A stretch of 64,000 nt of DNA, taken from the NCBI GenBank assembly GCA_000004695.1, contig CM000150.2, positions 3,200,001 through 3,264,000 on the forward strand, in the 5' to 3' direction. Both the position numbers and the translations under genes were made by a program. Below, piece by piece: positions 5,207 through 58,400 of the stretch. Source of the stretch: Dictyostelium discoideum (lineage: Eukaryota). The notes below the pieces were generated by a model. The model saw only the letters and a program-made list of their open reading frames with translations. It was not told the origin of the DNA and made no database searches. Positions within the stretch are counted from its first letter, which is position 1, and every line of letters starts with the position of its first letter.

Positions 5207-5381
5207 AACACTAAAAAAAAAAACAAAATACAAAAAATAAAAATAAGAAAAGGTATCCAATTTTAACCATAATTATGTTTAAATATTATTATTTATTTAT
5301 TTTTTTTTTTTATTTTTTTATTTTTTTTATTACTTGGGTTTTTTTTTTTTTTTATTTTTTTTTCTTAATTACTATAAAGAT

Positions 5382-5660
5382 TTAATAAGTTTTATGTGGG
5401 TGAATATTTTCAATAATACCATCGAAAGTTCTCTTTTTAACAATTTCTGGTGTAGTATCATAAGGACCTTCAACATTATCACGTCTCCATTTTTTAAAAT
5501 TAGCTGAAAGATCTGGTTTTGCAATGATTGAATTTGATATTTTTGAAACTCTTTCTCTAGCACCATCAACTAATTGAAATCTAACTTTACATGGTACACT
5601 AATAATAAATATTGAATAATGAATATTAGTATATGAAATTTTCACTTTAATCATTAACAA
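5382..5660 (-). CDS. Hypothetical protein, possibly the 3' exon of a small gene.
   Basis: 92-aa ORF whose C-terminal 65 aa (VRFQLVDGARERVSKISNSIIAKPDLSANFKKWRRDNVEGPYDTTPEIVKKRTFDGIIENIHPHKTY) have coding-like, relatively GC-rich codon usage. The N-terminal 27 aa look like intron read-through, and an acceptor-like ttattag precedes VRFQ. No domain recognised. Confidence 0.3.
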   Translation of the reverse strand: MLMIKVKISYTNIHYSIFIISVPCKVRFQLVDGARERVSKISNSIIAKPDLSANFKKWRRDNVEGPYDTTPEIVKKRTFDGIIENIHPHKTY

Positions 5661-5870
5661 TAATTGCTCTATTTCATATTTAAATCCTCAACCACAATAA
5701 TATTACAATAATAAATAAAATAGTAATAATCATAACAAAATAATTACTATTATTATTATTTTTATAATTATTATTGATAATAATAATGACTATTATTATT
5801 ATTATTGATAATAATGATTATTATTATTATTATTGAAGATTTCGAAACCATATTAAAAATGATATGATAT

Positions 5871-6294
5871 TTACTTGTATTTTGGATCTATATGTGAAAT
5901 ATTTGAATAATGAATTGGTGCTTCTTTTGTATATGCCATTGCTTTACTTCTTTTATTTGGTTTAGTTAATTTTTTTAATAATTTCAAACCTTCAACAATT
6001 AAATTACTATCTTTCTTATTAACTGATTTAATTATACCTTGTTTACCTTTATCTTTACCTGAAATGATTTGAACCTGTTATTTTTTGTTTTTTTATTTAT
6101 TTATTTTTTTTAAAAAAAAAAATATTAGAAAATGATTACTATAAAAAAAAAATAAATATTTCCTAATATTTGATGAAAATGCTGAAATTGGGAATTTTCT
6201 ATTATAAATTACACACTTTATCACCTTTAACATATTTCCATTTTGGAATTAAAAAAATTCCTTCTTTAAATGTTCTACCACCAAATAATGACAT
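5871..6294 (-). CDS. Mitochondrial-type ribosomal protein uL24 (KOW domain), join(5871..6074,6217..6294).
   Basis: The spliced product is MSLFGGRTFKEGIFLIPKWKYVKGDK|VQIISGKDKGKQGIIKSVNKKDSNLIVEGLKLLKK...KEAPIHYSNISHIDPKYK*. The KGDxVxVISGKDKGKQG...KEAxIhxSNV pattern is the uL24 KOW signature. Intron 6075..6216 has a GTGTGT donor and AACAG acceptor. Confidence 0.65.
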
Positions 6295-6738
6295 TTTTTT
6301 TTTTTTTTTCAAAAAACTTTATTTTTTCCTTTTATAAAAAAAAAAAAAAATAACAAAACAAAACAAAAAAAAACAAAATTAACTATATTTAATGAAATCA
6401 ATCAAAAAAAAAAAAAAAAAAAAAAAGTATTGATGCTGAATATGAAAAACTTGAAAAAAAAAAAAAAATAAATAAATAAAAAAAAAAAAATAAAAAAAAA
6501 AAAAAATAAATTTTTTTTTTTTTTTTTATAAAAAAGAAACGAGTCGGTTTCACTCACTGTTTTTTTTATTTTTTTTTTTTTTTTTTTTTTTTCATTACTA
6601 CCATTTTCCAAAATTAAGCAACAACAATACGTCAAATTAAACTATCGATTTTAGTTTACTATTTAAATAACAAAAAATAAATAAATAAACAATAAATAAA
6701 TAAATAAATAAAAAAATCATATATAAATTTGTCAAAAA

Positions 6739-7267
6739 ATGCAATCAGATGATATTATTTGGGATGTTATAAATAAGAATTTCTGTTCTTTTAAAACAAC
6801 GTATGTTTTTTTTTTTATTTTTATTAACATATTACTTAATATATTATTTTTTTTACAATATATCTAAATTTAACATAATATTAACTTTTTTTTTTTTTTT
6901 TTTTTTTTTTCAGATTTAATAAAACTAAATTTTGTAAAAATGAATATAATGTAACTGGTGTTTGTAATAAAGTATCATGTCCATTAGCAAATAGTAGATA
7001 TGCAACAGTACGTGAAGAAGAAGGTGTATGTTATTTATATATGAAAACAGTTGAAAGAGCTCATACTCCAAATAGACTTTGGGAAAAGATTAAATTGGAT
7101 CCAAATTTCATGAAAGCAATAGAACAAATCGATAGTCATTTAGAATTTTGGCCAGGTCATATGAGTCATAGAGTTAAACAAAGATATATTAGAATTACAC
7201 AATATTTAATTAGAATGAGAAAAATGAGAAAACAAATCAAGTATGTTTAATTTAATATTTTAAATTT

Positions 7268-7298
<31 letters not shown>

Positions 7299-7786
7299 CT
7301 AACATACACACTATTATTTATTATTATTATAGACGTGAATTAGTACCAATTAAAAAGAAAGCAGAAAGAAGAGATGCAACTCGTGAGAATAAAGCATTGA
7401 TTGCAGCTCATTTAACTACAAATATTAAGAAAGAATTATTAGAGAGATTGAATAAGGGTACTTATGCTGATATGCATTATTTCCCAGAAGATATTATTAA
7501 TAATGTTTTGGAGAAAGAAGGTGAAGCCGATCAATTCAGTGAAGAAGAAGCTGATGAAAATGAAGAAGAAGGTGAAGAAGAAATGGAAGAAGAATTTGAA
7601 GATGATATCGATGATATTGAAGATGCTGGTGGTGCTTTCGAATATGTCGAGGGTGATGATGATGAAGATGATATTGATGATGAATGTAAGTTTTTTTTTA
7701 TATTTTTTACTAATTATATAAATATAAAAAAAAAAAAAAAAAAAAAAAATCTTGGAAATTTTTTTTCTATTTTTGGATTTATTTCT

Positions 7787-7818
<32 letters not shown>

Positions 7819-7940
7819 CAGACGAAAATGAACCATACCAAGATGATGATGAAGAAGATGATGATGATGATGATGATGATGACGAAGAAGTTAAACCACA
7901 AATTACAAAGAAGAGAGGTCCAACCTTCAAACCAACCAGT

Positions 7941-7973
<33 letters not shown>

Positions 7974-8141
7974 TTTAAAAAAAAAAATATATACTAATTA
8001 ATTATTTATTTATTTATTTATTTATTTTTAAAATTTATTTCTAATTTTTTTTTAAAAAATAAAAAAAAAGAAAAAACACCACAAAAACGTGTACATATGG
8101 AAGTCGAAATCGAAGAAGAAACCGAAAACCAAGCAAATTAA
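6739..8141 (+). CDS. MAK16 ribosome-biogenesis protein homolog, join(6739..6800,6914..7240,7333..7685,7822..7938,8071..8141).
   Basis: The protein [21 protein letters not shown]|[109 protein letters not shown]|[27 protein letters not shown]... is collinear with the MAK16 family (MQSDDVIWD..FCSFK, CPLANSQYAT, YLYMK..ERA, QYLIR.RK). The acidic D/E tail is split by two more GTAAGT introns. The last exon encodes [23 protein letters not shown]. All splice phases are consistent. Confidence 0.85.
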
Positions 8142-18174: not shown

Positions 18175-18335
18175 AAAAAATAATTTTTTATTTTTTTATT
18201 TAAATTAATTATTTTATTAGTGATAGATATTTGTTTACATTATCAAGATTATTTCATTTTAAATTATTTTTCTAAGAATTCAAAAAAACTTTAATTCAAC
18301 ATTGTTTATATTACAAAAATTGATAAAAAAAATGA

Positions 18336-18336
18336 A

Positions 18337-18367
<31 letters not shown>

Positions 18368-18372
18368 ATGAA

Positions 18373-18466
<94 letters not shown>
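18336..18466. repeat. (AAAT)n tetranucleotide microsatellite of about 32 units.
   Basis: aaataaataaat... with a single aaatgaat variant. Confidence 0.95.
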
Positions 18467-18468
<2 letters not shown>

Positions 18469-18680
18469 AAAAAAACAAAATAAAAAAATAAAAAAACAAA
18501 AATAAAAATAAAAAATAAAAAAATAAATACAGAATTTTAATTTATTGGTGTGGGAATTGAAATATTTAGTAAAATTAAATTTAATGAATAAAAACATAAT
18601 TTTTTTTAATTTTTTTTTTTTTTTTTTTTTAATTTCAAGTTCAACACTGTGTTAACATTTAGTTTATAATTCAAATACAA

Positions 18681-19264
18681 ATGTCAGAACCATATAAGCC
18701 ATCTACATTAAAACATGGAGAGGTAATTAAAAATTTAATTTTTATAAAAAAAAAAAAAAAAAAATTAACATATCATTTTTAAAATAATAAAGGAACTATG
18801 CCAAGAATTGGCATCAAACAATTCAATTGATTCAGTTGGTATTTTGGATGATGAAGGAAATACTATCGCATCAAAAGGATTTAATATTACACCACAAGAA
18901 TTCAAAGATATTAAATACATTTTAATAAATGATAAACCAGATTATAAATTGGGAACAATTACCATCAACAATGTGACATATAATGAATTAACAAAGTATA
19001 GTGATGGCCTATATTATGCAAAAGCTGGAGAAACTGGTTGTGTAATTGCTAAAAATGTAAATATTCATCCATTTATTTATTTAAAATACTTGTTAAAAAT
19101 ATTTTTTATTAAAACAAGTTCTTTTATTTATTTATTTATTTTCTTTTTAAAAGATTAAATCTCTTATTGTAGCTACATTACATTGTAAACACACATCTTC
19201 TTTATTTGACGCATGTGAAAAAATAAAATCGACATCTCAATTTATTAAGTTTGATGGATATTAA
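18681..19264 (+). CDS. Divergent profilin-like protein, join(18681..18722,18793..19056,19154..19264), about 137 aa.
   Basis: The spliced product is MSEPYKPSTLKHGE|ELCQELASNNSIDSVGILDDEGNTIASKGFNITPQEFKDIKYILINDKPDYKLGTITINNVTYNELTKYSDGLYYAKAGETGCVIAKN|IKSLIVATLHCKHTSSLFDACEKIKSTSQFIKFDGY*. It has the same length and secondary pattern as profilin, compare ...AILGANDGGVWAQSSGINVTPQE...GGQKYMVIQGEPG.V.RGKKG.GGV.IKKTNQALIFGIYDEP...LGDYLI. Donors are GTAATT and GTAAAT. Confidence 0.55.
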
Positions 19265-19380
19265 ACAATGATATAAAAATTGTCACTTTAAATTTCTTTA
19301 AATAAAAAATTTTATTTTAATTATTAAAAACAATTATTTGAACTTCAAATTATTTGAATTTGAATTTTTTTTTTTTTGAA

Positions 19381-19480
19381 TTGGATAACGCAATTATTAG
19401 TTGCTTCTCCTTGAGATGCTAGATCTCATTTTATTTTTAGTTTTTTTTTTTTTTTACAGGGTCTCTAAAAGAGGGGTTAC

Positions 19481-19521
<41 letters not shown>

Positions 19522-19814
19522 TTTCGAATTTTGAATTGTATTATTACTTTTGATTAAAACATCTTTTTTGTCCAAACTTTTTTCTAAATCTTTTTTTATT
19601 TTATCGTCTGGTTGGTGATTGATGTTTATGACGTATTTGAATTGTTTTTTTTTTAATTGAGTTTTATCCACAATTTCGCTTATTTTTTGTAGGCATTTGT
19701 GTTGCTTAATATTTGTGGTGTTGTTTGTGATTTTCATCTTATTTTCTTTCTATTTTTTTTATTTTTCTTTAAAAAGTTAAAAATCTGGAAATTTTCTGAT
19801 TGACTTGGGTTCCC

Positions 19815-19881
<67 letters not shown>

Positions 19882-20371
19882 TTATTTATAGAAAGTACTG
19901 AGTGAATTATTGTATTTTTTGAGATGTTTAGGAAGTTCTATTGCGTGAAGAGGTGAGTTCCATTGTCTGCTAAATTGTAATAGCTTCAGCGAGATTAGTG
20001 AGTCTAATTTATTTTGTTCTTCTGGCCGTTGCTTTGATTTGATTCTTAATGTTTTGTCTATAACCGCTTGTGTCCTGTCCCATGCAGCTCTTTGTGTTTT
20101 AATTAGTTCACGTATGACTTGTTGTCTGTGAATTATTATTTCTTTTTCATCGTGAACGAGTTTGTTTCTTTTGTGCCAAATTTTTTCGAATATAATAGCT
20201 ATTAAATTGGCTACTAGTGCAATTTGTAGATGGTTTAAAATCTTCACATTCCAGGTGTGAGTGGTGTGTCCACACTTAGTTAGGGTGTAGTTGAAGATTT
20301 CTTGTGTGTTTTTGATGTGGGCTTTGCAGTTGAAGAATATATGTTCTGAAGTCTCATCTTCCCCACACTTT
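19381..20371 (-). mobile_element. 5'-truncated TRE5-A (tRNA-gene-targeted non-LTR retrotransposon) 3' fragment. Reading along the minus strand, it runs from the ORF2 C-terminal remnant, through poly(A), the B-module-like segment with the ORF1 start, and the C-module, to an oligo(A) tail.
   Basis: On the minus strand the ORF2 tail reads ...KCGEDETSEHIFFNCKAHIKNTQEIF...ANLIAIIFEKIWHKRNKLVHDEKE...STFYK*. A ~70-nt A-run follows, then a segment identical to the 5' UTR and first 86 codons of ORF1 (MKITNNTTNIKQHKCLQKISEIVDKTQLKKKQFKYVININH...). Then comes the C-module ...agaccctgtaaaaa...gatctagcatctcaaggagaagcaactaataattgcgttatccaattc and oligo(A). Confidence 0.75.
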
Positions 20372-20378
20372 CATGAAT
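19882..20378 (-). pseudogene. TRE5-A ORF2 C-terminal remnant (Cys/His zinc-knuckle region), 5'-truncated.
   Basis: The open frame KCGEDETSEHIFFNCKAHIK...IWHKRNKLVHDEKEIIIHRQQ...STFYK* has no start codon. It parallels the second ORF2 tail in this window, 57066..57666 (SCKEEESSMHIFFECKSIKQ...SIWYRRNQIKF). Confidence 0.75.
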
Positions 20379-20386
20379 TCGATTTT
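20372..20386. repeat. Target-site duplication (left copy) of the TRE5-A.2-like insertion.
   Basis: catgaattcgatttt is found at 20372-20386 and again at 22772-22786, exactly flanking the element. Confidence 0.7.
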
Positions 20387-20701
20387 TTTTTTTTTGAATA
20401 ACGCAATTATTATTTGCTTCTCCTTGAGATGCTAGATCTCATTTTATTTTTTTTTTTTTTTACAGGGTCTTTTTGATTAAAACATCTTTTTTGTCCAAAC
20501 TTTTTTCTAAATCTTTTTTTATTTTATCGTCTGGTTCGTGATTGATGTTTATGACGTATTTGAATTGTTTTTTTTTTAATTGAGTTTTATCCACAATTTC
20601 GCTTATTTTTTGTAGGCATTTGTGTTGCTTAATATTTGTGGTGTTGTTTGTGATTTTCATTTTATTTTCTTTCTATCTTTTTTATTTTTCTGATTAACTT
20701 G

Positions 20702-20760
<59 letters not shown>

Positions 20761-22465
20761 TTATAGAAAGTACTGAGTGAATTATTGTATTTTTTGAGAT
20801 GTTTAGGAAGTTCTATTACGGGTGTTGATGATGATTTGTGACACCCCTTGTCCTGTTTTATCAATTGGTGCGTGGTGTGTTATTTTGTTTTTATATTGTT
20901 GATTTATTGAGTAAATTTTATTTGTTTTTATATTTGTTTCAGTTAGAAGTGCTGCGTCCAGCTTGTTGTTGTCTAAAACGGTGTTTATTATGCTGGCAGA
21001 TTGGATGGTGTTGGATCCTTGGACGTTCCAAACACCTATTCTTATTGTGTTTTTCTTTATAGTTTTATTTGGGGTAGATTTTTATCTACCTTTTGAAGTT
21101 TCTGGTTTATTTTGTCTTCTAACTGATCTTTACTTTGTTCGTTGTGTTGTTGGTCTTGTGTGTTTGTGGGGTTTTTTGATTTATTGATTTGTTTTAGAAT
21201 TTCCTTGTTGAAGTTGTCTATATCTTCATCCATTTTTGTTTTTATGCTTTTTTGTCCATATTCACCCAATTTTGGTTTGACTGGTGTTTTGTTGGTCTTG
21301 TTTGTTTTGTCTTGTTGTTTCTTTTTTGGTGTGTTTAACAATTTACTTGGTGAATCGATAATTTTCGATGGTGTACCATAGGTTGGGCTGAAACTCATGA
21401 TATGTTTTATTGGAGAGGAGAAGAACCATTGATTTGAAGGGATTGAAAGTGGGAATTCTATTTTTCTTATTGCATCAGTGTTTGGGCTGGTGAAGTCGAA
21501 GATATCATTTGCCTCTCTAAGTTTTTCTTCCGTTGTTAGTCCCTTTGTTTCGCCGTGTTGTTTTATTGGTGTATTGTATGGAGATGGTGGTTCGATAGGT
21601 TTTTCTGATTTTGTTTTAATTTCTTGATTGTTTATCGATTGTGTATTGATCTCATTCTCTATTCTTGTTAGTTCATCTACGTTTTCTAGTGATGCTTCTA
21701 TTACCTTTTGAGCTGTATCATCTAGGGCCATAAATGTTTTATCATTAGATGAGGATGTGATTGGTGGGATAATGATTGTTCTTTTTCCTTGTTTGGTATT
21801 TGTTCTGATGTAGAGTGTGGTTGTTGTTCATCTGATTGTTTTTTATTTTTGTTTTCTTCTTGATTTTCTGGTAATGAGGTTTGATCTCTCCATCCTTTGT
21901 TGGAGTGTCCAATTAATGTTAGATTGTCTAGTTCAATGATAGTGTCAAATTCTTCTACGACTCTTTTCACTGTTTTGATAATTAGAGTTTCGCCTTTAAT
22001 TTCTGATTTAATTAGTTTACATCCTTCATTTTCTATTACCCATTCTATTTCTGTGAGTGATTTATACCAATCAAAATCTGTATACATATTTTTTGGTCTT
22101 ATAGTGGTTATAAATTGTCCTTTTAATTCTGCATCAAACATATTTACAAAATAGATTACTGTACTAATACTGTCTGTGAGAATTTTGAATGTATTATTAC
22201 TTTTGATTAAAACATCTTTTTTGTCCAAACTTTTTTCTAAATCTTTTTTTATTTTATCGTCTGGTTCGTGATTGATGTTTATGACGTATTTGAATTGTTT
22301 TTTTTTTAATTGAGTTTTATCCACAATTTCGCTTATTTTTTGTAGGCATTTGTGTTGCTTAATATTTGTGGTGTTGTTTGTGATTTTCATTTTATTTTCT
22401 TTCTATCTTTTTTATTTTTCTTTAAAAAGTTAAAAATCTGGAAATTTTCTAATTAACTTGGTTCC

Positions 22466-22510
<45 letters not shown>

Positions 22511-22771
22511 TCTTTTTTATATGAAAAATGAAATAATCAAAAAAAGAGATTGTTGTTGTTGTTTGTTTTTTTCGATCTGATTATTTTTTGCTTTTTTTTT
22601 GAAAATTTTGCTACGCAAAATTCTCAAAACGAAACAAATAATAAATTACAATAAAGTAAAAAGATGGCTTTTTAAAATAGTTTATTTATTTATTTATTTG
22701 TTTTTTAAGTCTTTTTTATATGAAAAATGAAATAATCAAAAAAAGAGATTGTTGTTGTTGTTTGTTTTTTT
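20387..22771 (-). mobile_element. TRE5-A.2-like element, about 2.4 kb on the minus strand. The order is duplicated A-module, B-module with the ORF1 start, ORF1, a short 5' stub of ORF2 joined by internal deletion to the last ~60 bp of ORF2, poly(A), B-like segment with ORF1 N-terminus, C-module, and oligo(A).
   Basis: The 5' end at 22771 is 47 bp from the 5' end of tRNA-Thr at 22818. This matches the known TRE5-A integration preference of about 48 bp upstream of tRNA genes, with the element 5' end proximal. The copy is flanked by 15-bp direct repeats. Its internal structure matches the described 2.6-kb ORF2-deleted TRE5-A.2 class. The oligo(A) tail is 20387..20395. Confidence 0.8.
21057..22390 (-). 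CDS. TRE5-A ORF1 (about 445 aa), present as two overlapping frames 21722..22390 and 21057..21731. A frameshift near 21725 disrupts it.
   Basis: The N-terminal frame reads MKITNNTTNIKQHKCLQKISEIVDK...HLMIKHLWP*. The C-terminal frame reads MALDDTAQKVIEASLENVDELTRIENE...LPQIKL*. Their sum matches the ~51-kDa ORF1 of TRE5-A. The same N-terminal 66-86 codons recur at 20460..20660 and 19477..19737. Confidence 0.7.
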
Positions 22772-22776
22772 TCATG
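22508..22776. repeat. Tandem duplication with a 199-bp period at the 5' end of the TRE5-A copy (A-module duplication; the second copy is partial).
   Basis: tcttttttatatgaaaaatgaaataatcaaaaaaagagattgttgttgttgtttgttttttt occurs at 22508-22575 and again at 22707-22776. TRE5-A is known to carry about 200-bp A-modules, often duplicated. Confidence 0.7.
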
Positions 22777-22786
22777 AATTCGATTT
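22772..22786. repeat. Target-site duplication (right copy) of the TRE5-A.2-like insertion.
   Basis: catgaattcgatttt, identical to 20372-20386. Confidence 0.7.
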
Positions 22787-22817
22787 TATTCCCTGTTGAA
22801 TTAATTAATTTCCAAAA

Positions 22818-22889
22818 TGGCTCCTTAGCATAGTGGTATTGCGCTTCCCTAGTAAGGAAGAGGTCATGAGTTCGATCCTCATAGGAGCC
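22818..22889 (+). tRNA. tRNA-Thr (anticodon AGT/AGU).
   Basis: GGCTCCTTAGCATAGTGGTATTGCGCTTCCCTAGTAAGGAAGAGGTCATGAGTTCGATCCTCATAGGAGCC+T. The acceptor stem has 7 bp (GGCTCCT/AGGAGCC). The A box is TAGCATAGTGG. The anticodon stem CTTCC/GGAAG has loop CTAGTAA. The T arm is ATGAG-TTCGATC-CTCAT. No intron. Confidence 0.9.
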
Positions 22890-22923
22890 TTTTATATAAA
22901 TATAAATCTGAACCATATATCGC

Positions 22924-22934
22924 AGGTTCGATTC
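22924..22934 (+). promoter_or_regulatory. External B box (ex-B), a Dictyostelium-specific extra TFIIIC site about 35 bp downstream of tRNA-Thr.
   Basis: GGTTCGATTCT matches the B-box consensus GGTTCGANTCC at 10 of 11 positions, 35 bp past the tRNA 3' end. Many D. discoideum tRNA genes carry such a duplicated downstream B box. Confidence 0.55.
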
Positions 22935-23231
22935 TTTTCCGAGGTAATCGAGAAGATTTTGCAAGATTCTAAATCACTTCTATCTTGATGGGTTTTTCAT
23001 TTATTTTAATATTAAAAAAAAAAAAAGATATAGATGTATATTCGATGCAAATGCATTTTTTATCTTTAAAGGGAATAAATTTTAAAAAATAAATAAAAAA
23101 TTATAGGATGTATAAAGAATAGAAAATTTCCTTCTTTTTTTTTCATTTACATGAATTTTATTTTAACTTATAACACACAAGCATTATAAATGCGAACATA
23201 ATTTCTTTCTTTTTTTTTCATTTTTACCATT

Positions 23232-56780: not shown

Positions 56781-56805
56781 CGCCTTGCAAAAAAAAAAAA
56801 AAATT
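56781..56805 (-). terminator. Pol III terminator, a T16 run on the tRNA strand immediately 3' of tRNA-Ile.
   Basis: The minus strand reads aattttttttttttttttgcaaggcg starting at the tRNA discriminator base. Confidence 0.8.
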
Positions 56806-56879
56806 GCTCGATGCAGGGATCGAACCTGCGACCGTGGCGTTATTAGCACCACGCTCTGCCGACTGAGCTAATCGAGCCA
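56806..56879 (-). tRNA. tRNA-Ile (anticodon AAT/AAU).
   Basis: The reverse complement is GGCTCGATTAGCTCAGTCGGCAGAGCGTGGTGCTAATAACGCCACGGTCGCAGGTTCGATCCCTGCATCGAGCA. The acceptor is GGCTCGA/TCGAGC(C). The A box is TAGCTCAGTCGG. The anticodon loop CTAATAA gives AAT, which decodes AUU Ile. The B box is GGTTCGATCCC. Confidence 0.9.
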
Positions 56880-57009
56880 TTTTGATATTTTAGAAATAAA
56901 GTTACTCTATAAAATTAATAAATAAAAAGAAAGGAGCAGAAGAGACTATGAAATTGGAGGCCTGCAACTCTGGAATATGGCAACCAGATCCAATGCCCAG
57001 AAAGCATGG

Positions 57010-57075
57010 ATATACGAACAATACCTCAGAGAAAAAGACGACCAGAACTGCCCTCCACATATGAAAGCCTGGAAG
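57010..57075. repeat. Left arm of a ~60-bp inverted repeat that brackets the TRE5 ORF2 remnant. Its partner is at 57688..57744.
   Basis: atatacgaacaatacctcagagaaaaagacgaccagaactgccctccacatatgaaagcctggaag is the reverse complement of cttccagacttccatatgtggagggcagttctggtcgtctttttctctgaggtatat. Identity is about 92%, with a 7-nt indel. Confidence 0.8.
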
Positions 57076-57687
57076 TTGTTGCACCACCCAAGAGAGCGAA
57101 TTACTCTCAAACTAAACCAAGTCAAACCCAAATACAAAAACAAACAAAAATTAAAAGTAATCTATAGAAACATGATGGATATCAAATACAAGGGATGGAA
57201 CAAACACCAGCCAACAACAGGTCAAAAACTGATTCAAAAGAACATTAATCACCCAACTCTACCATTTAGAGAAGCCAGATCAATAACAACTATCAAAGGA
57301 AGAGACTTAGCATGGAGGTATCTACTCAAGGCACTTCCAAAACACCATGTGGAGAATTGCCACTCATGTAAAGAAGAAGAGTCGTCTATGCACATCTTCT
57401 TCGAATGCAAATCAATAAAACAGGATATCGACTCAATCTATCAAAAGGTCTGTAAAGACTCTAACAACACTTACCACGGTCCATGGAGCGAAAAAGTTCT
57501 CGGAAAACTACTCACACCATTCTCATCAAATCTGATAGGAGCCATTATGGAATCGATATGGTACAGAAGAAACCAAATAAAATTCAACGATAACACTACA
57601 ATAATAACAGAGAACCAAATAATTCATAAAATCAAAGGCTTTCCAGCATTTGATGTGAATCCTTGATAGTGAGTTTTCTTTTTCCGA

Positions 57688-57744
57688 CTTCCAGACTTCC
57701 ATATGTGGAGGGCAGTTCTGGTCGTCTTTTTCTCTGAGGTATAT
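57688..57744. repeat. Right arm of the inverted repeat, lying in the 3' UTR of the TRE5 fragment.
   Basis: See the partner at 57010..57075. Confidence 0.8.
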
Positions 57745-57757
57745 AACACCAACTACT

Positions 57758-57800
<43 letters not shown>

Positions 57801-58199
57801 ATAACAATAATAATAATAATATAATAATAATAATAATATAATAATAATAATAATAAAAAAATAAGAATAAAATAAAAAAAAAAAAAATATAAAAAAAAAA
57901 AAAAACTACAAATAAACTCTCCTAGAACACACTCAAATTGAGTGATGTTATTAAAAAAAAAAAATTAATAGATATTAAATATGCATATTACATTACTAAT
58001 TATAGTTGACACACATTTAAATAATATAATAATAATAATAATAATAATACTGTCAGCTCATTATGAATAATATAAATACTAAAGAATAATTTTATAAACA
58101 ATATTGAATATTATAAATATAAATTAATATTAAATAAAGATAACAAGGTATTATTCAATTATATAATTATTAATTATATATATTTATAAAGCTAACAAG

Positions 58200-58400
58200 C
58201 TTTATTACATTTTGGTCAGTTTTTGCTTAAAAATTTCCGCGACAGCATTTCCAATTAAAAAAAAAACTTCTGTGTATTCTAAAAAACTAACCCTTTCAGA
58301 GGCCCTGTAAATACATTACAAATAAAAGAGATATAGCGTCTCAAGGAGAAGCAACTAACAATTGCGCTATTCAATTAAAAAAAAAAAAAAAAAAAAAAAA
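58200..58400 (+). mobile_element. TRE5-type C-module-like 3' terminus with an oligo(A) tail and a short B-module-like segment before it. It is a solo 3' fragment, or the distal end of the 56930 element.
   Basis: ...aaaaatttccgcgacagcatttccaatt...gaggccctgtaaatacattacaaataaaagagatatagcgtctcaaggagaagcaactaacaattgcgctattcaatt plus an A25 run. This is about 85% identical to the TRE5-A C-module copies in reverse complement at 19395-19470 and 20396-20459 (agaccctgtaaaaa...gagatctagcatctcaaggagaagcaa(c/a)taataattgcgttat). Confidence 0.55.

Follow-up and report, generated by a model that had tools for sequence, protein, structure and literature searches.

Canonical 3' ends of two tandem TRE5-A retrotransposons upstream of a tRNA-Thr gene of Dictyostelium discoideum, with A-run boundaries and possible concerted evolution of the B-module

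Background

TRE5-A (formerly DRE) is a retrotransposon of Dictyostelium discoideum without long terminal repeats (LTRs). The full-length element TRE5-A.1 is organised as AB-ORF1/ORF2-BC, where ORF stands for open reading frame (PMC3159450; PMC5006619; Marschalek et al. 1992 as cited in PMC3159450), and its B-module of about 290 base pairs (bp), which contains the translation start of ORF1, is duplicated into the 3' untranslated region (UTR) (PMC3159450, PMC5006619). The A-module is the plus-strand promoter of TRE5-A (PMC3159450). The C-module, 134-137 bp long, forms the 3' end of both TRE5-A and TRE5-C; it has weak antisense promoter activity, is essential for retrotransposition and supplies an RNA structure needed for reverse transcription (PMC3159450). 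These module functions were restated in PMC5633606. The present analysis concerns a stretch of 64,000 nucleotides (nt) of D. discoideum (assembly GCA_000004695.1, contig CM000150.2, positions 3,200,001 to 3,264,000 of the forward strand), hereafter the window, in which two TRE5-A copies lie head to tail on the minus strand, upstream of a transfer RNA (tRNA) gene for threonine. An earlier reading of the letters made without database searches (the sequence-only reading) had described the 3' ends of these copies as an ORF2 stop followed by poly(A), an ORF1 start, a C-module and oligo(A), and had suggested a template switch as their origin.

Neither TRE5-B nor TRE5-C has a 3' B-module, and on these grounds the B duplication was judged irrelevant for retrotransposition by the authors of PMC3159450. 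The C-modules of TRE5-A.1 and TRE5-C are 78% identical (PMC3159450). The derivative TRE5-A.2 (AB-ORF1-BC) is characterised by a large ORF2 deletion and by a 72-bp BC deletion, with 87 bp of C left (PMC3159450). TRE5-A shows an integration preference for positions 47 +/- 3 bp from a tRNA gene, and tandem integration has been documented (PMC5391098).

Results

Two TRE5-A copies at one tRNA gene

The region almost certainly corresponds to the canonical 3' ends of two tandem TRE5-A copies, and the arrangement itself is already known, having been described as TRE5-A structure since 1992 according to papers cited in PMC3159450. The integration landmark for both copies is tRNA-Thr(AGU) (22819..22890, plus strand; ARAGORN; Rfam tRNA, 65.5 bits), which was the sole match in a Rfam scan of positions 19300-23000. 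Copy 2, the tRNA-proximal one (22770..20386, 2385 bp, minus strand), has its 5' end at 22770 facing the gene, 48 nt from the tRNA start at 22819. Copy 1, the tRNA-distal one (20369..19365, minus strand), is 5'-truncated and begins within ORF2. The order of ORF2 stop, A-run (an uninterrupted run of adenines), ORF1 start, C-module and oligo(A) was present in both copies, as the sequence-only reading had stated. Among the features that define TRE5-A, the tRNA distance, the A+B and B+C modular ends, a B-module of about 290 bp with the ORF1 start and the C-module were found, and no observation contradicted the identification.

The relative age of the two copies could be read from their junction. 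The exact 16-mer AAATCGAATTCATGAA occurs twice in the window and only there, at 22771-22786 and at 20370-20385. The first occurrence is the tRNA-proximal target-site duplication of copy 2 (22771..22786, minus strand; at least 13 nt of it certain) and the second follows its oligo(A) tail (10-13 nt, 20386-20395), the two together spanning 20370..20395 (minus strand; sequence and junction table). Since copy 1 begins right after this AAATCGAATTCATGAA repeat, inside ORF2, copy 2 is the younger: it is a later insertion at the same preferred site, and copy 1 was displaced outward.

Copy 1 is a 5'-truncated element with a full TRE5-A.1-type B-C end. Its ORF2 end (19882..20369, minus strand) comprises the last 161 codons with a zinc-finger-like CX2C...H...C region and the stop TAA at 19884..19882; the fragment was 98% identical to DDB_G0276495 of D. 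discoideum AX4, whose UniRef name reads 'Reverse transcriptase z...'. Two bases past the stop comes an A-run of 61 nt (19819..19879), then a 3' B-module of 298 nt (19521..19818; ATG at 19737) with about 70 ORF1-derived codons followed by GAAAC, a second internal A-run, 35 nt long, between B and C (19486..19520), the unique part of the C-module (19378..19485, 108 nt, delimited by blastn) and a terminal oligo(A) tail of 13 nt (19365..19377), all on the minus strand; the internal A-runs were taken from the homopolymer list and the junction table, the tail from the sequence and the junction table. Counted with its A-run, the C-module amounts to 143 nt (108 + 35), against the published 134-137 bp. 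An RNAalifold analysis of six C-modules gave three 3'-terminal stems in agreement with the published stems I-III, in which all pairs were kept, loops were variable and covariation was zero, the pairs being invariant. Size and stems place this segment with the C-modules, for which the requirement in retrotransposition is taken from PMC3159450. What it shares with TRE5-A.1 is a location upstream of a tRNA gene, towards which its 5' end points, and a B-module that includes the ORF1 start, followed by C-module and oligo(A) tail; it differs from TRE5-A.1 by its truncation within ORF2 and by A-run lengths that are specific to the copy.

Copy 2 is a non-autonomous TRE5-A.2 element, all of whose parts are on the minus strand. 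Its 5' A-module region (22508..22770) consists of a partial A-module (the last ~65 nt) followed by a full one of 196 nt; A-module positions 195-262 matched 22771..22704 at 100%, and the layout of the same locus in an independent D. discoideum assembly (L002) agreed. The partial and complete A-modules are joined via the short A-run that ends the A-module. TRE5-A elements are described as carrying one or several A-modules ahead of B. An A-run of 38 nt (22470..22507) marks the A|B junction and is followed by the 5' B-module (22180..22469, 290 nt), made of a 79-nt leader and the first ~70 codons of ORF1 (ATG at 22390). ORF1 (21057..22390) is 99% identical to D. discoideum AX4 proteins and is frameshifted in the window, where it reads as 222 amino acids plus a remainder of 224 amino acids. 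The frameshift lies at 21722-21745 and the corresponding L002 segment (5287-6621) codes for an intact protein of 444 amino acids, a discrepancy that reflects a true difference between strains or else an error in homopolymer length. The ORF2 remnant (20757..21056; stop TAA at 20759..20757) retains the start and the last ~65 nt, with a large internal deletion between them; in the L002 equivalent, the matching ORF2-end positions were 425-489 only. Next come an A-run of 55 nt (20704..20758; homopolymer list and junction table, as for the A|B run), a 3' B-module of 233 nt (20471..20703) that has a 29-nt gap in its leader and ends past ORF1 codon 63 (ATG at 20660, ORF of 66 amino acids), and a C-module remnant of 75 nt (20396..20470), 89% identical to the C-module of copy 1 (blastn).

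The alignment of both copies showed that copy 2 is devoid of 29 nt of B leader, of the whole second A-run and of the first 22 nt of C, its gap across the B|C junction amounting to 84 nt. The sequence-only reading had the two copies differ solely in the place where the ORF1 fragment stops (66 versus 86 codons), which proved too simple. That difference between the copies is the known difference between TRE5-A.1 and TRE5-A.2, because both deletions of TRE5-A.2 are found in copy 2, where ORF2 is reduced to its start and its last ~65 nt and a B|C gap leaves a C remnant. The A- and B-modules, ORF1 and the target-site duplication of copy 2 are likewise those of TRE5-A.2, from which it differs by the additional 29-nt gap in the 3' B leader and by the ORF1 frameshift, found in the window and not in L002. 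The post-ORF2 poly(A) of the same reading was recovered with a length of 55-61 nt in place of the ~70 nt given for it.

Both copies being at one locus, they might have resulted from rearrangements peculiar to this place or from faulty assembly, and not reflect a feature of the family. The probability of this is negligible: the identical locus was present in L002, where the modules were base-for-base the same, the architecture was found again at unrelated loci of two sister-lineage assemblies, and it is the published TRE5-A structure (PMC3159450, PMC5006619). L002 and the sister-lineage loci refute this explanation. A 3' end with an internal A-run and a second 5' UTR/ORF1 start is a feature of the family, published as AB-ORF1/ORF2-BC, as had been proposed from the sequence. 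The same reading had foreseen that the observation might turn out to be 'simply the known B/C-module homology', which matches the descriptions of PMC3159450 and PMC5006619; its converse supposition, a canonical TRE5-A.1 in which the C-module directly follows ORF2, is contradicted by the published B copy.

A second B-module at the 3' end

What had been described as an ORF1 start with 66-86 codons corresponds to the 3' B-module, which duplicates the 5' B-module of 290 bp. When compared by blastn with the true 5' B-module and ORF1 start of copy 2 (22469..22180), the 3' B-module of copy 1 was 97.8% identical over 279 nt (E 4e-136) and that of copy 2 was 100% identical over 221 nt (E 7e-114), a resemblance far beyond chance. 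In the alignment, B similarity opens at the identical nucleotide right after an A-run, at the 5' site as well as at both 3' sites. The figures of 66 and 86 are correct as mechanical ATG-to-stop ORF lengths; the portions derived from ORF1 comprise 63 and ~70 codons, and the remaining codons are read-through into the C-module or the second A-run. Look-ups of the exact sequences of the 66- and 86-amino acid ORFs returned no record.

Nine TRE5-A-type 3' ends

The distribution of this 3' B-module was examined among nine TRE5-A-type 3' ends, consisting of the two window copies and of loci retrieved from three other assemblies via homologues of the ORF2 end and of ORF1 (L001 and L003-L007). L003 and L006 are from 'D. 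cf. discoideum' GCA_054859205.1 (lineage Y) and L007, with two copies, from GCA_054859235.1 (lineage Z). An A-run of 17-61 nt was found directly at the ORF2 stop position in all nine ends, and the ORF1-start B segment in six of them (both window copies, L003, L006 and the two L007 copies); L005 has 10 nt of B left. ORF2 ends of lineages Y and Z were merely 82-84% identical to those of D. discoideum, which argues for a B-C tail older than the split of D. discoideum from its two sister lineages.

Variant 3' ends were also observed. In an older D. discoideum copy (L004, 7540-7670), an AATT microhomology marks the point where the final 75 nt of B (positions 215-289) pass into the final 16 nt of C. 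L001 (7660-7930) reads ORF2-(A)n-(AAT)n-C, without B, and one L007 copy (7718-8070) apparently terminates at B-(A)27, without C-module. The breakpoints of the L007, L004 and L001 variants are all in A-rich sequence.

A separate observation concerns the 5' side of these elements. Four of the six TRE5-A-like copies examined in the two 'D. cf. discoideum' assemblies, both of which are represented, are accompanied there by a GC-rich unit of up to ~570 nt (47% against a locus average of 28%), located at 6801-6951 in L001, ~6800-7367 in L005, 6440-6566 in L006 and 6605-7155 (minus strand) in L007; L003 and the plus-strand copy of L007 have no such unit. It starts with a degenerate tRNA-like stretch, is variably 5'-truncated, has a constant last nucleotide (...GACCCGCCATACTGTCGCAC) and joins the element at four different places, with no A-run or target duplication at the junction. 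The unit had no Rfam match (L005) and was absent from the window. It resembles template-switch chimeras of the U6/L1 type, or the leader of a non-autonomous family.

A-runs as module boundaries

Every boundary between TRE5-A modules coincides with an A-run: 38 nt at A|B, 17-61 nt at ORF2|B and 13-35 nt at B|C, with the tail after C. In lineage Z, the minus-strand L007 copy has (A)13(AAT)n between B and C, and in L001, which has no B, (AAT)n separates C from the A-run that follows ORF2. In all nine copies the ORF2 stop codon merges into the A-run, with no UTR between. A TAATAAT motif stands 15-19 nt ahead of the A-runs ending both B and C, which is weak evidence in an AT-rich genome. A single target-site duplication encloses the entire composite of copy 2, from A to C. 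Neither an A-run at every module boundary nor the grouping of B copies by lineage reported below was found described in the TRE5-A literature examined, which did not extend to the primary descriptions (Marschalek 1992, Gloeckner 2001).

These boundaries bear on a possible origin in which a younger copy was inserted at a tRNA gene ahead of an older one, itself truncated or deleted, and a read-through transcript of the two was then retrotransposed as one unit. Tandem TRE5-A copies at one tRNA gene are present here and have been documented elsewhere (PMC5391098), and BC.ABC distal ends have reportedly been described (Marschalek et al. 1992), which would also speak for this origin. However, a target duplication of 13-16 nt would be expected between units, like the one that separates copy 2 from copy 1, and no target-site-like sequence was found between modules (A-run/B, A-run/C) in the nine copies. 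Because such remnants are absent, this origin is very unlikely.

At the 3' boundary of B, all complete 3' B copies of the three lineages share one junction, ACAATTCAAAAT..GAAAC/GAAT-(A)n, which was absent from the ORF1 continuation in the two 5' copies compared (D. discoideum and Z, no 5' B having been obtained for Y). This junction holds an extra A and a GAAAC filler, neither of which is in ORF1. Because the 3' junction is shared, a single origin is preferred to repeated duplication; an independent B duplication in each lineage was rejected, all 3' copies having the same non-ORF1 junction (ACAATTC...GAAAC-(A)n).

Homogenisation of 5' and 3' B copies

The B-modules were compared over the 173 alignment columns shared by seven sequences. 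Identity was 99.4-100% between 5' and 3' B of D. discoideum and 98.3% between 5' B (L005) and 3' B (L007) of lineage Z, and B copies of D. discoideum and Z were 88-90% identical irrespective of position in the element. Sixteen sites sort B copies by lineage, 11 of them separating D. discoideum from Y and Z, and five being Z-specific and common to the 5' and 3' copies of Z. No interior site sorted B copies by position among the seven sequences and 173 columns. Because B copies group by lineage and not by position, yet share their 3' junction, the comparison, with one 5' B sampled per lineage, indicates that B copies probably evolve in concert and have been repeatedly homogenised.

The two window copies differ at three sites in this respect. 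The 3' B of copy 1 agrees with Y and Z 3' B at sites 72, 88 and 212, where the 3' B of copy 2 agrees instead with 5' B. Site 212 corresponds to codon 42: each of the five ORF1 proteins retrieved from D. discoideum has E there, the 5' state, and the 3' B of copy 1 has the ancestral Q. A further transfer from 5' to 3' B probably took place in copy 2, within D. discoideum.

An element without B duplication near tRNA-Ile

The sequence-only reading had extended the arrangement to a third element, near a tRNA-Ile gene, and this extension did not hold. A 5'-truncated TRE5-C-like ORF2 fragment (56929..57798, plus strand) lies ~50 nt upstream of tRNA-Ile(AAU) (56805-56877, minus strand; ARAGORN) and ends in a 56-nt inverted duplication and an A-run of 38 nt (57761-57798, plus strand; homopolymer list). 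Further on, a TRE5-C-type C-module (58284-58374) with a 24-nt oligo(A) tail occupies 58284..58400 (plus strand), with no B-module before it. The A-run, the C-module and the tail of the proposed arrangement were confirmed. The C-module was 76.7% identical to that of TRE5-A by blastn and aligned with a score of 87, shuffled sequences reaching 29 at most. No B similarity was found by local alignment of B with 57799-58283 (score 43; shuffles, mean 34 and maximum 61) or with 58100-58290 (score 32; mean 24.5 and maximum 46), and the best B matches at this element were A-rich low-complexity sequence. The B-like segment suggested near position 58200 was rejected, its alignment score being inside the shuffle range and the shared strings being A-rich only. 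Absence of a 3' B is the published condition of TRE5-B and TRE5-C (PMC3159450).

The stop at 57666, taken for the end of ORF2, did not stand either. The ORF2 fragment has 34% amino acid identity to TRE5-A ORF2 over 89 residues, and homology ends ~73 residues early. Just ahead of the 38-nt A-run, positions 57687-57742 are a 56-nt inverted duplication of 57021-57076 (96% complementary), and this inverted arm occupies the place expected for the last ~73 ORF2 codons. Judging from these arrangements, the stop at 57666 is a rearrangement breakpoint rather than a genuine ORF2 end, and the locus is a rearranged TRE5-C-type copy without B duplication. Its position ~50 nt upstream of tRNA-Ile, its related C-module (77% against the published 78%) and the absence of a 3' B are those of TRE5-C, though it is not certain that ORF2 fragment and C-module are one insertion; it departs from TRE5-C in having the inverted duplication where its ORF2 should end and, before the C-module, ~490 nt of simple AT-rich sequence. 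This spacer (57799-58283), between the A-run and the C-module, is made of (AAT)n and A-runs and includes, at 57936-57964, a weak second match to the C-module end (79% over 29 nt) plus an A-run. An (A)n-(AAT)n spacer before C is likewise found in two Z-lineage TRE5-A-like copies (L001, L007).

Neighbouring features

An intron-containing gene at 18660-19265 (plus strand) adjoins the 3' end of copy 1, on which it converges; its L002 orthologue belongs to the Profilin Pfam family. A long (AAATAAAT)n microsatellite lies upstream of this gene, at 18330-18475.

Discussion

The TRE5-A 3' region may be viewed as three units joined head to tail, each closed by an A-run: ...ORF2-TAA-(A)n, B-(A)n and C-(A)n. 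This chain would have arisen once, before D. discoideum split from the two sister lineages, through template switches of the reverse transcriptase at A-runs or poly(A) tails, or through recombination between A-runs, and the two B copies would have been homogenised repeatedly afterwards. A template-switch origin is plausible but unproven. In its most specific form, the tail would be a fossil chain left by end-to-end template jumps in the common ancestor, followed by ongoing reverse transcriptase switching between 5' and 3' B on the RNA template; as a whole, this scenario is put forward tentatively and seems unlikely.

For the chain itself, the first explanation to be considered is that of end-to-end template jumps within one target-primed reverse transcription, the resulting chimera having become the master copy. 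Reverse transcription would have proceeded from a short RNA ending in C to the poly(A) of a premature B transcript, then to the poly(A) of an RNA ending at the ORF2 stop, the B transcript having been prematurely polyadenylated and extending from an ancestral transcript start to about ORF1 codon 70. The sequence-only reading had a jump in the opposite direction, from the poly(A) of one RNA to the 5' region of another. This cannot be correct because first-strand complementary DNA synthesis runs 3' to 5' on its template: the enzyme would leave a B-containing RNA at its 5' end and continue on a poly(A) tail. That the ORF2 stop adjoins the A-run without an intervening 3' UTR in all nine copies speaks for such jumps, as do the A-runs that trail each of the A, ORF2, B and C modules and the one target-site duplication around the whole composite. 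The TAATAAT motifs ahead of the A-runs of B and C (weakly, given the AT-rich genome), the sister-lineage copy apparently ending at B-(A)27 without C-module, and the GC-rich unit fused to four points of TRE5-A-like elements, which suggests template switching by the reverse transcriptase, are in line with it. On the other hand, B also begins after an A-run within the 5' UTR, on the downstream side of the A-module promoter, and its first base is not known as an RNA 5' end; the GAAAC between the ORF1-derived part and the A-run is left unexplained, and A-runs are abundant and unstable in the D. discoideum genome. End-to-end jumps are considered a rather doubtful explanation on balance.

Chimeras of this kind are known for U6/L1 and for R2, where the 3' end or poly(A) of one RNA is joined to the start of another within one target-site duplication. 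The TRE5-A composite similarly has one target-site duplication and none between its units. Its junctions all have A-runs, but the A-run ahead of B occurs inside the 5' UTR as well, so that the first base of B is not necessarily a former RNA 5' end. Unlike these chimeras, the composite has become fixed as the master structure from which an entire family replicates, its downstream unit comes from the element's own 5' region, and one of its boundaries is also internal in the 5' UTR.

Another possible explanation, which is credible without being probable, is a copy-choice event or unequal recombination between pre-existing A-runs in an ancestor with the structure ORF2-stop-(A)n-spacer-C. A switch with the A-run of the A|B junction, made from one RNA to another by reverse transcriptase or else by recombination at the DNA level between tandem copies, would have carried B into the 3' UTR, and the same flanked homology would later drive B loss and the overwriting of 3' B by 5' B. 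B-less relatives with the structure ORF2-(A)n-(AAT)n-C do exist (L001 and the TRE5-C-like copy of the window), an A-run also stands ahead of 5' B inside the 5' UTR, and (A)13(AAT)n separates B from C in the minus-strand L007 copy of lineage Z. L001 has the appearance of a loss of B between two A-runs, the joins of deletion variants fall at A-rich microhomologies (L004), and a homogenised interior with preserved edges is what would be expected of conversion between flanked repeats. This explanation has difficulty with the 3' boundary of B (TTCAAAATTC|GAAAC), which has no A-run counterpart in ORF1, so that at least one junction must be non-homologous; moreover, RNA-level and DNA-level events cannot be separated from sequence. 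Template jumps and A-run copy-choice or recombination fit the tail about equally.

Several points weigh against the overall interpretation of the locus. The BC deletion of copy 2 measures 84 nt against the published 72 bp and its C remnant 75 nt against 87, a mismatch plausibly due to variable A-run lengths. The 64-kb window contains 63 A/T runs of at least 20 nt, which makes an A-run alone weak evidence of a former poly(A) tail. The junction of an A-run with B is also found inside the 5' UTR, so that B cannot be shown to begin at an RNA 5' end. Finally, homogenisation was deduced from seven sequences with one 5' B per lineage.

The suggestion that the duplication may explain the promoter-like properties of the C-module finds no support in the module functions. 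The plus-strand promoter is the A-module and not B, C fires antisense, and TRE5-C has a C-module without a 3' B.

In LTR retrotransposons, LTRs are regenerated at each cycle. The 5' and 3' B copies of one TRE5-A lineage are near-identical while orthologous copies are ~10% apart, which recalls the concerted evolution of LTRs. The comparison is limited by the fact that TRE5-A is a non-LTR element using target-primed reverse transcription, with no built-in regeneration of terminal repeats, and that its homogenisation is partial, affecting the interior of B and not its edges. A full-text literature search combining TRE5-A with gene conversion, concerted evolution and template switching or jumping yielded a single TRE5-A paper, PMC5391098, whose conversion terms referred to ribosomal DNA only, and in the two papers searched for the word 'template' (PMC5633606 and PMC5391098) it appeared in other contexts only.

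Conclusion

The duplicated 3' arrangement as first stated re-derives the structure of a well-studied retrotransposon and adds nothing new to it. The A-run punctuation of the modules and the concerted evolution of B are modest leads. If a full census confirms them, the A-run boundaries bear on how the 'non-identical terminal repeats' of TRE5-A arose. Concerted B evolution in at least three lineages is not predicted by target-primed reverse transcription and would be of interest under the same condition. If true, ongoing reverse transcriptase switching between B copies would amount to an LTR-like concerted evolution of terminal repeats in a non-LTR element.

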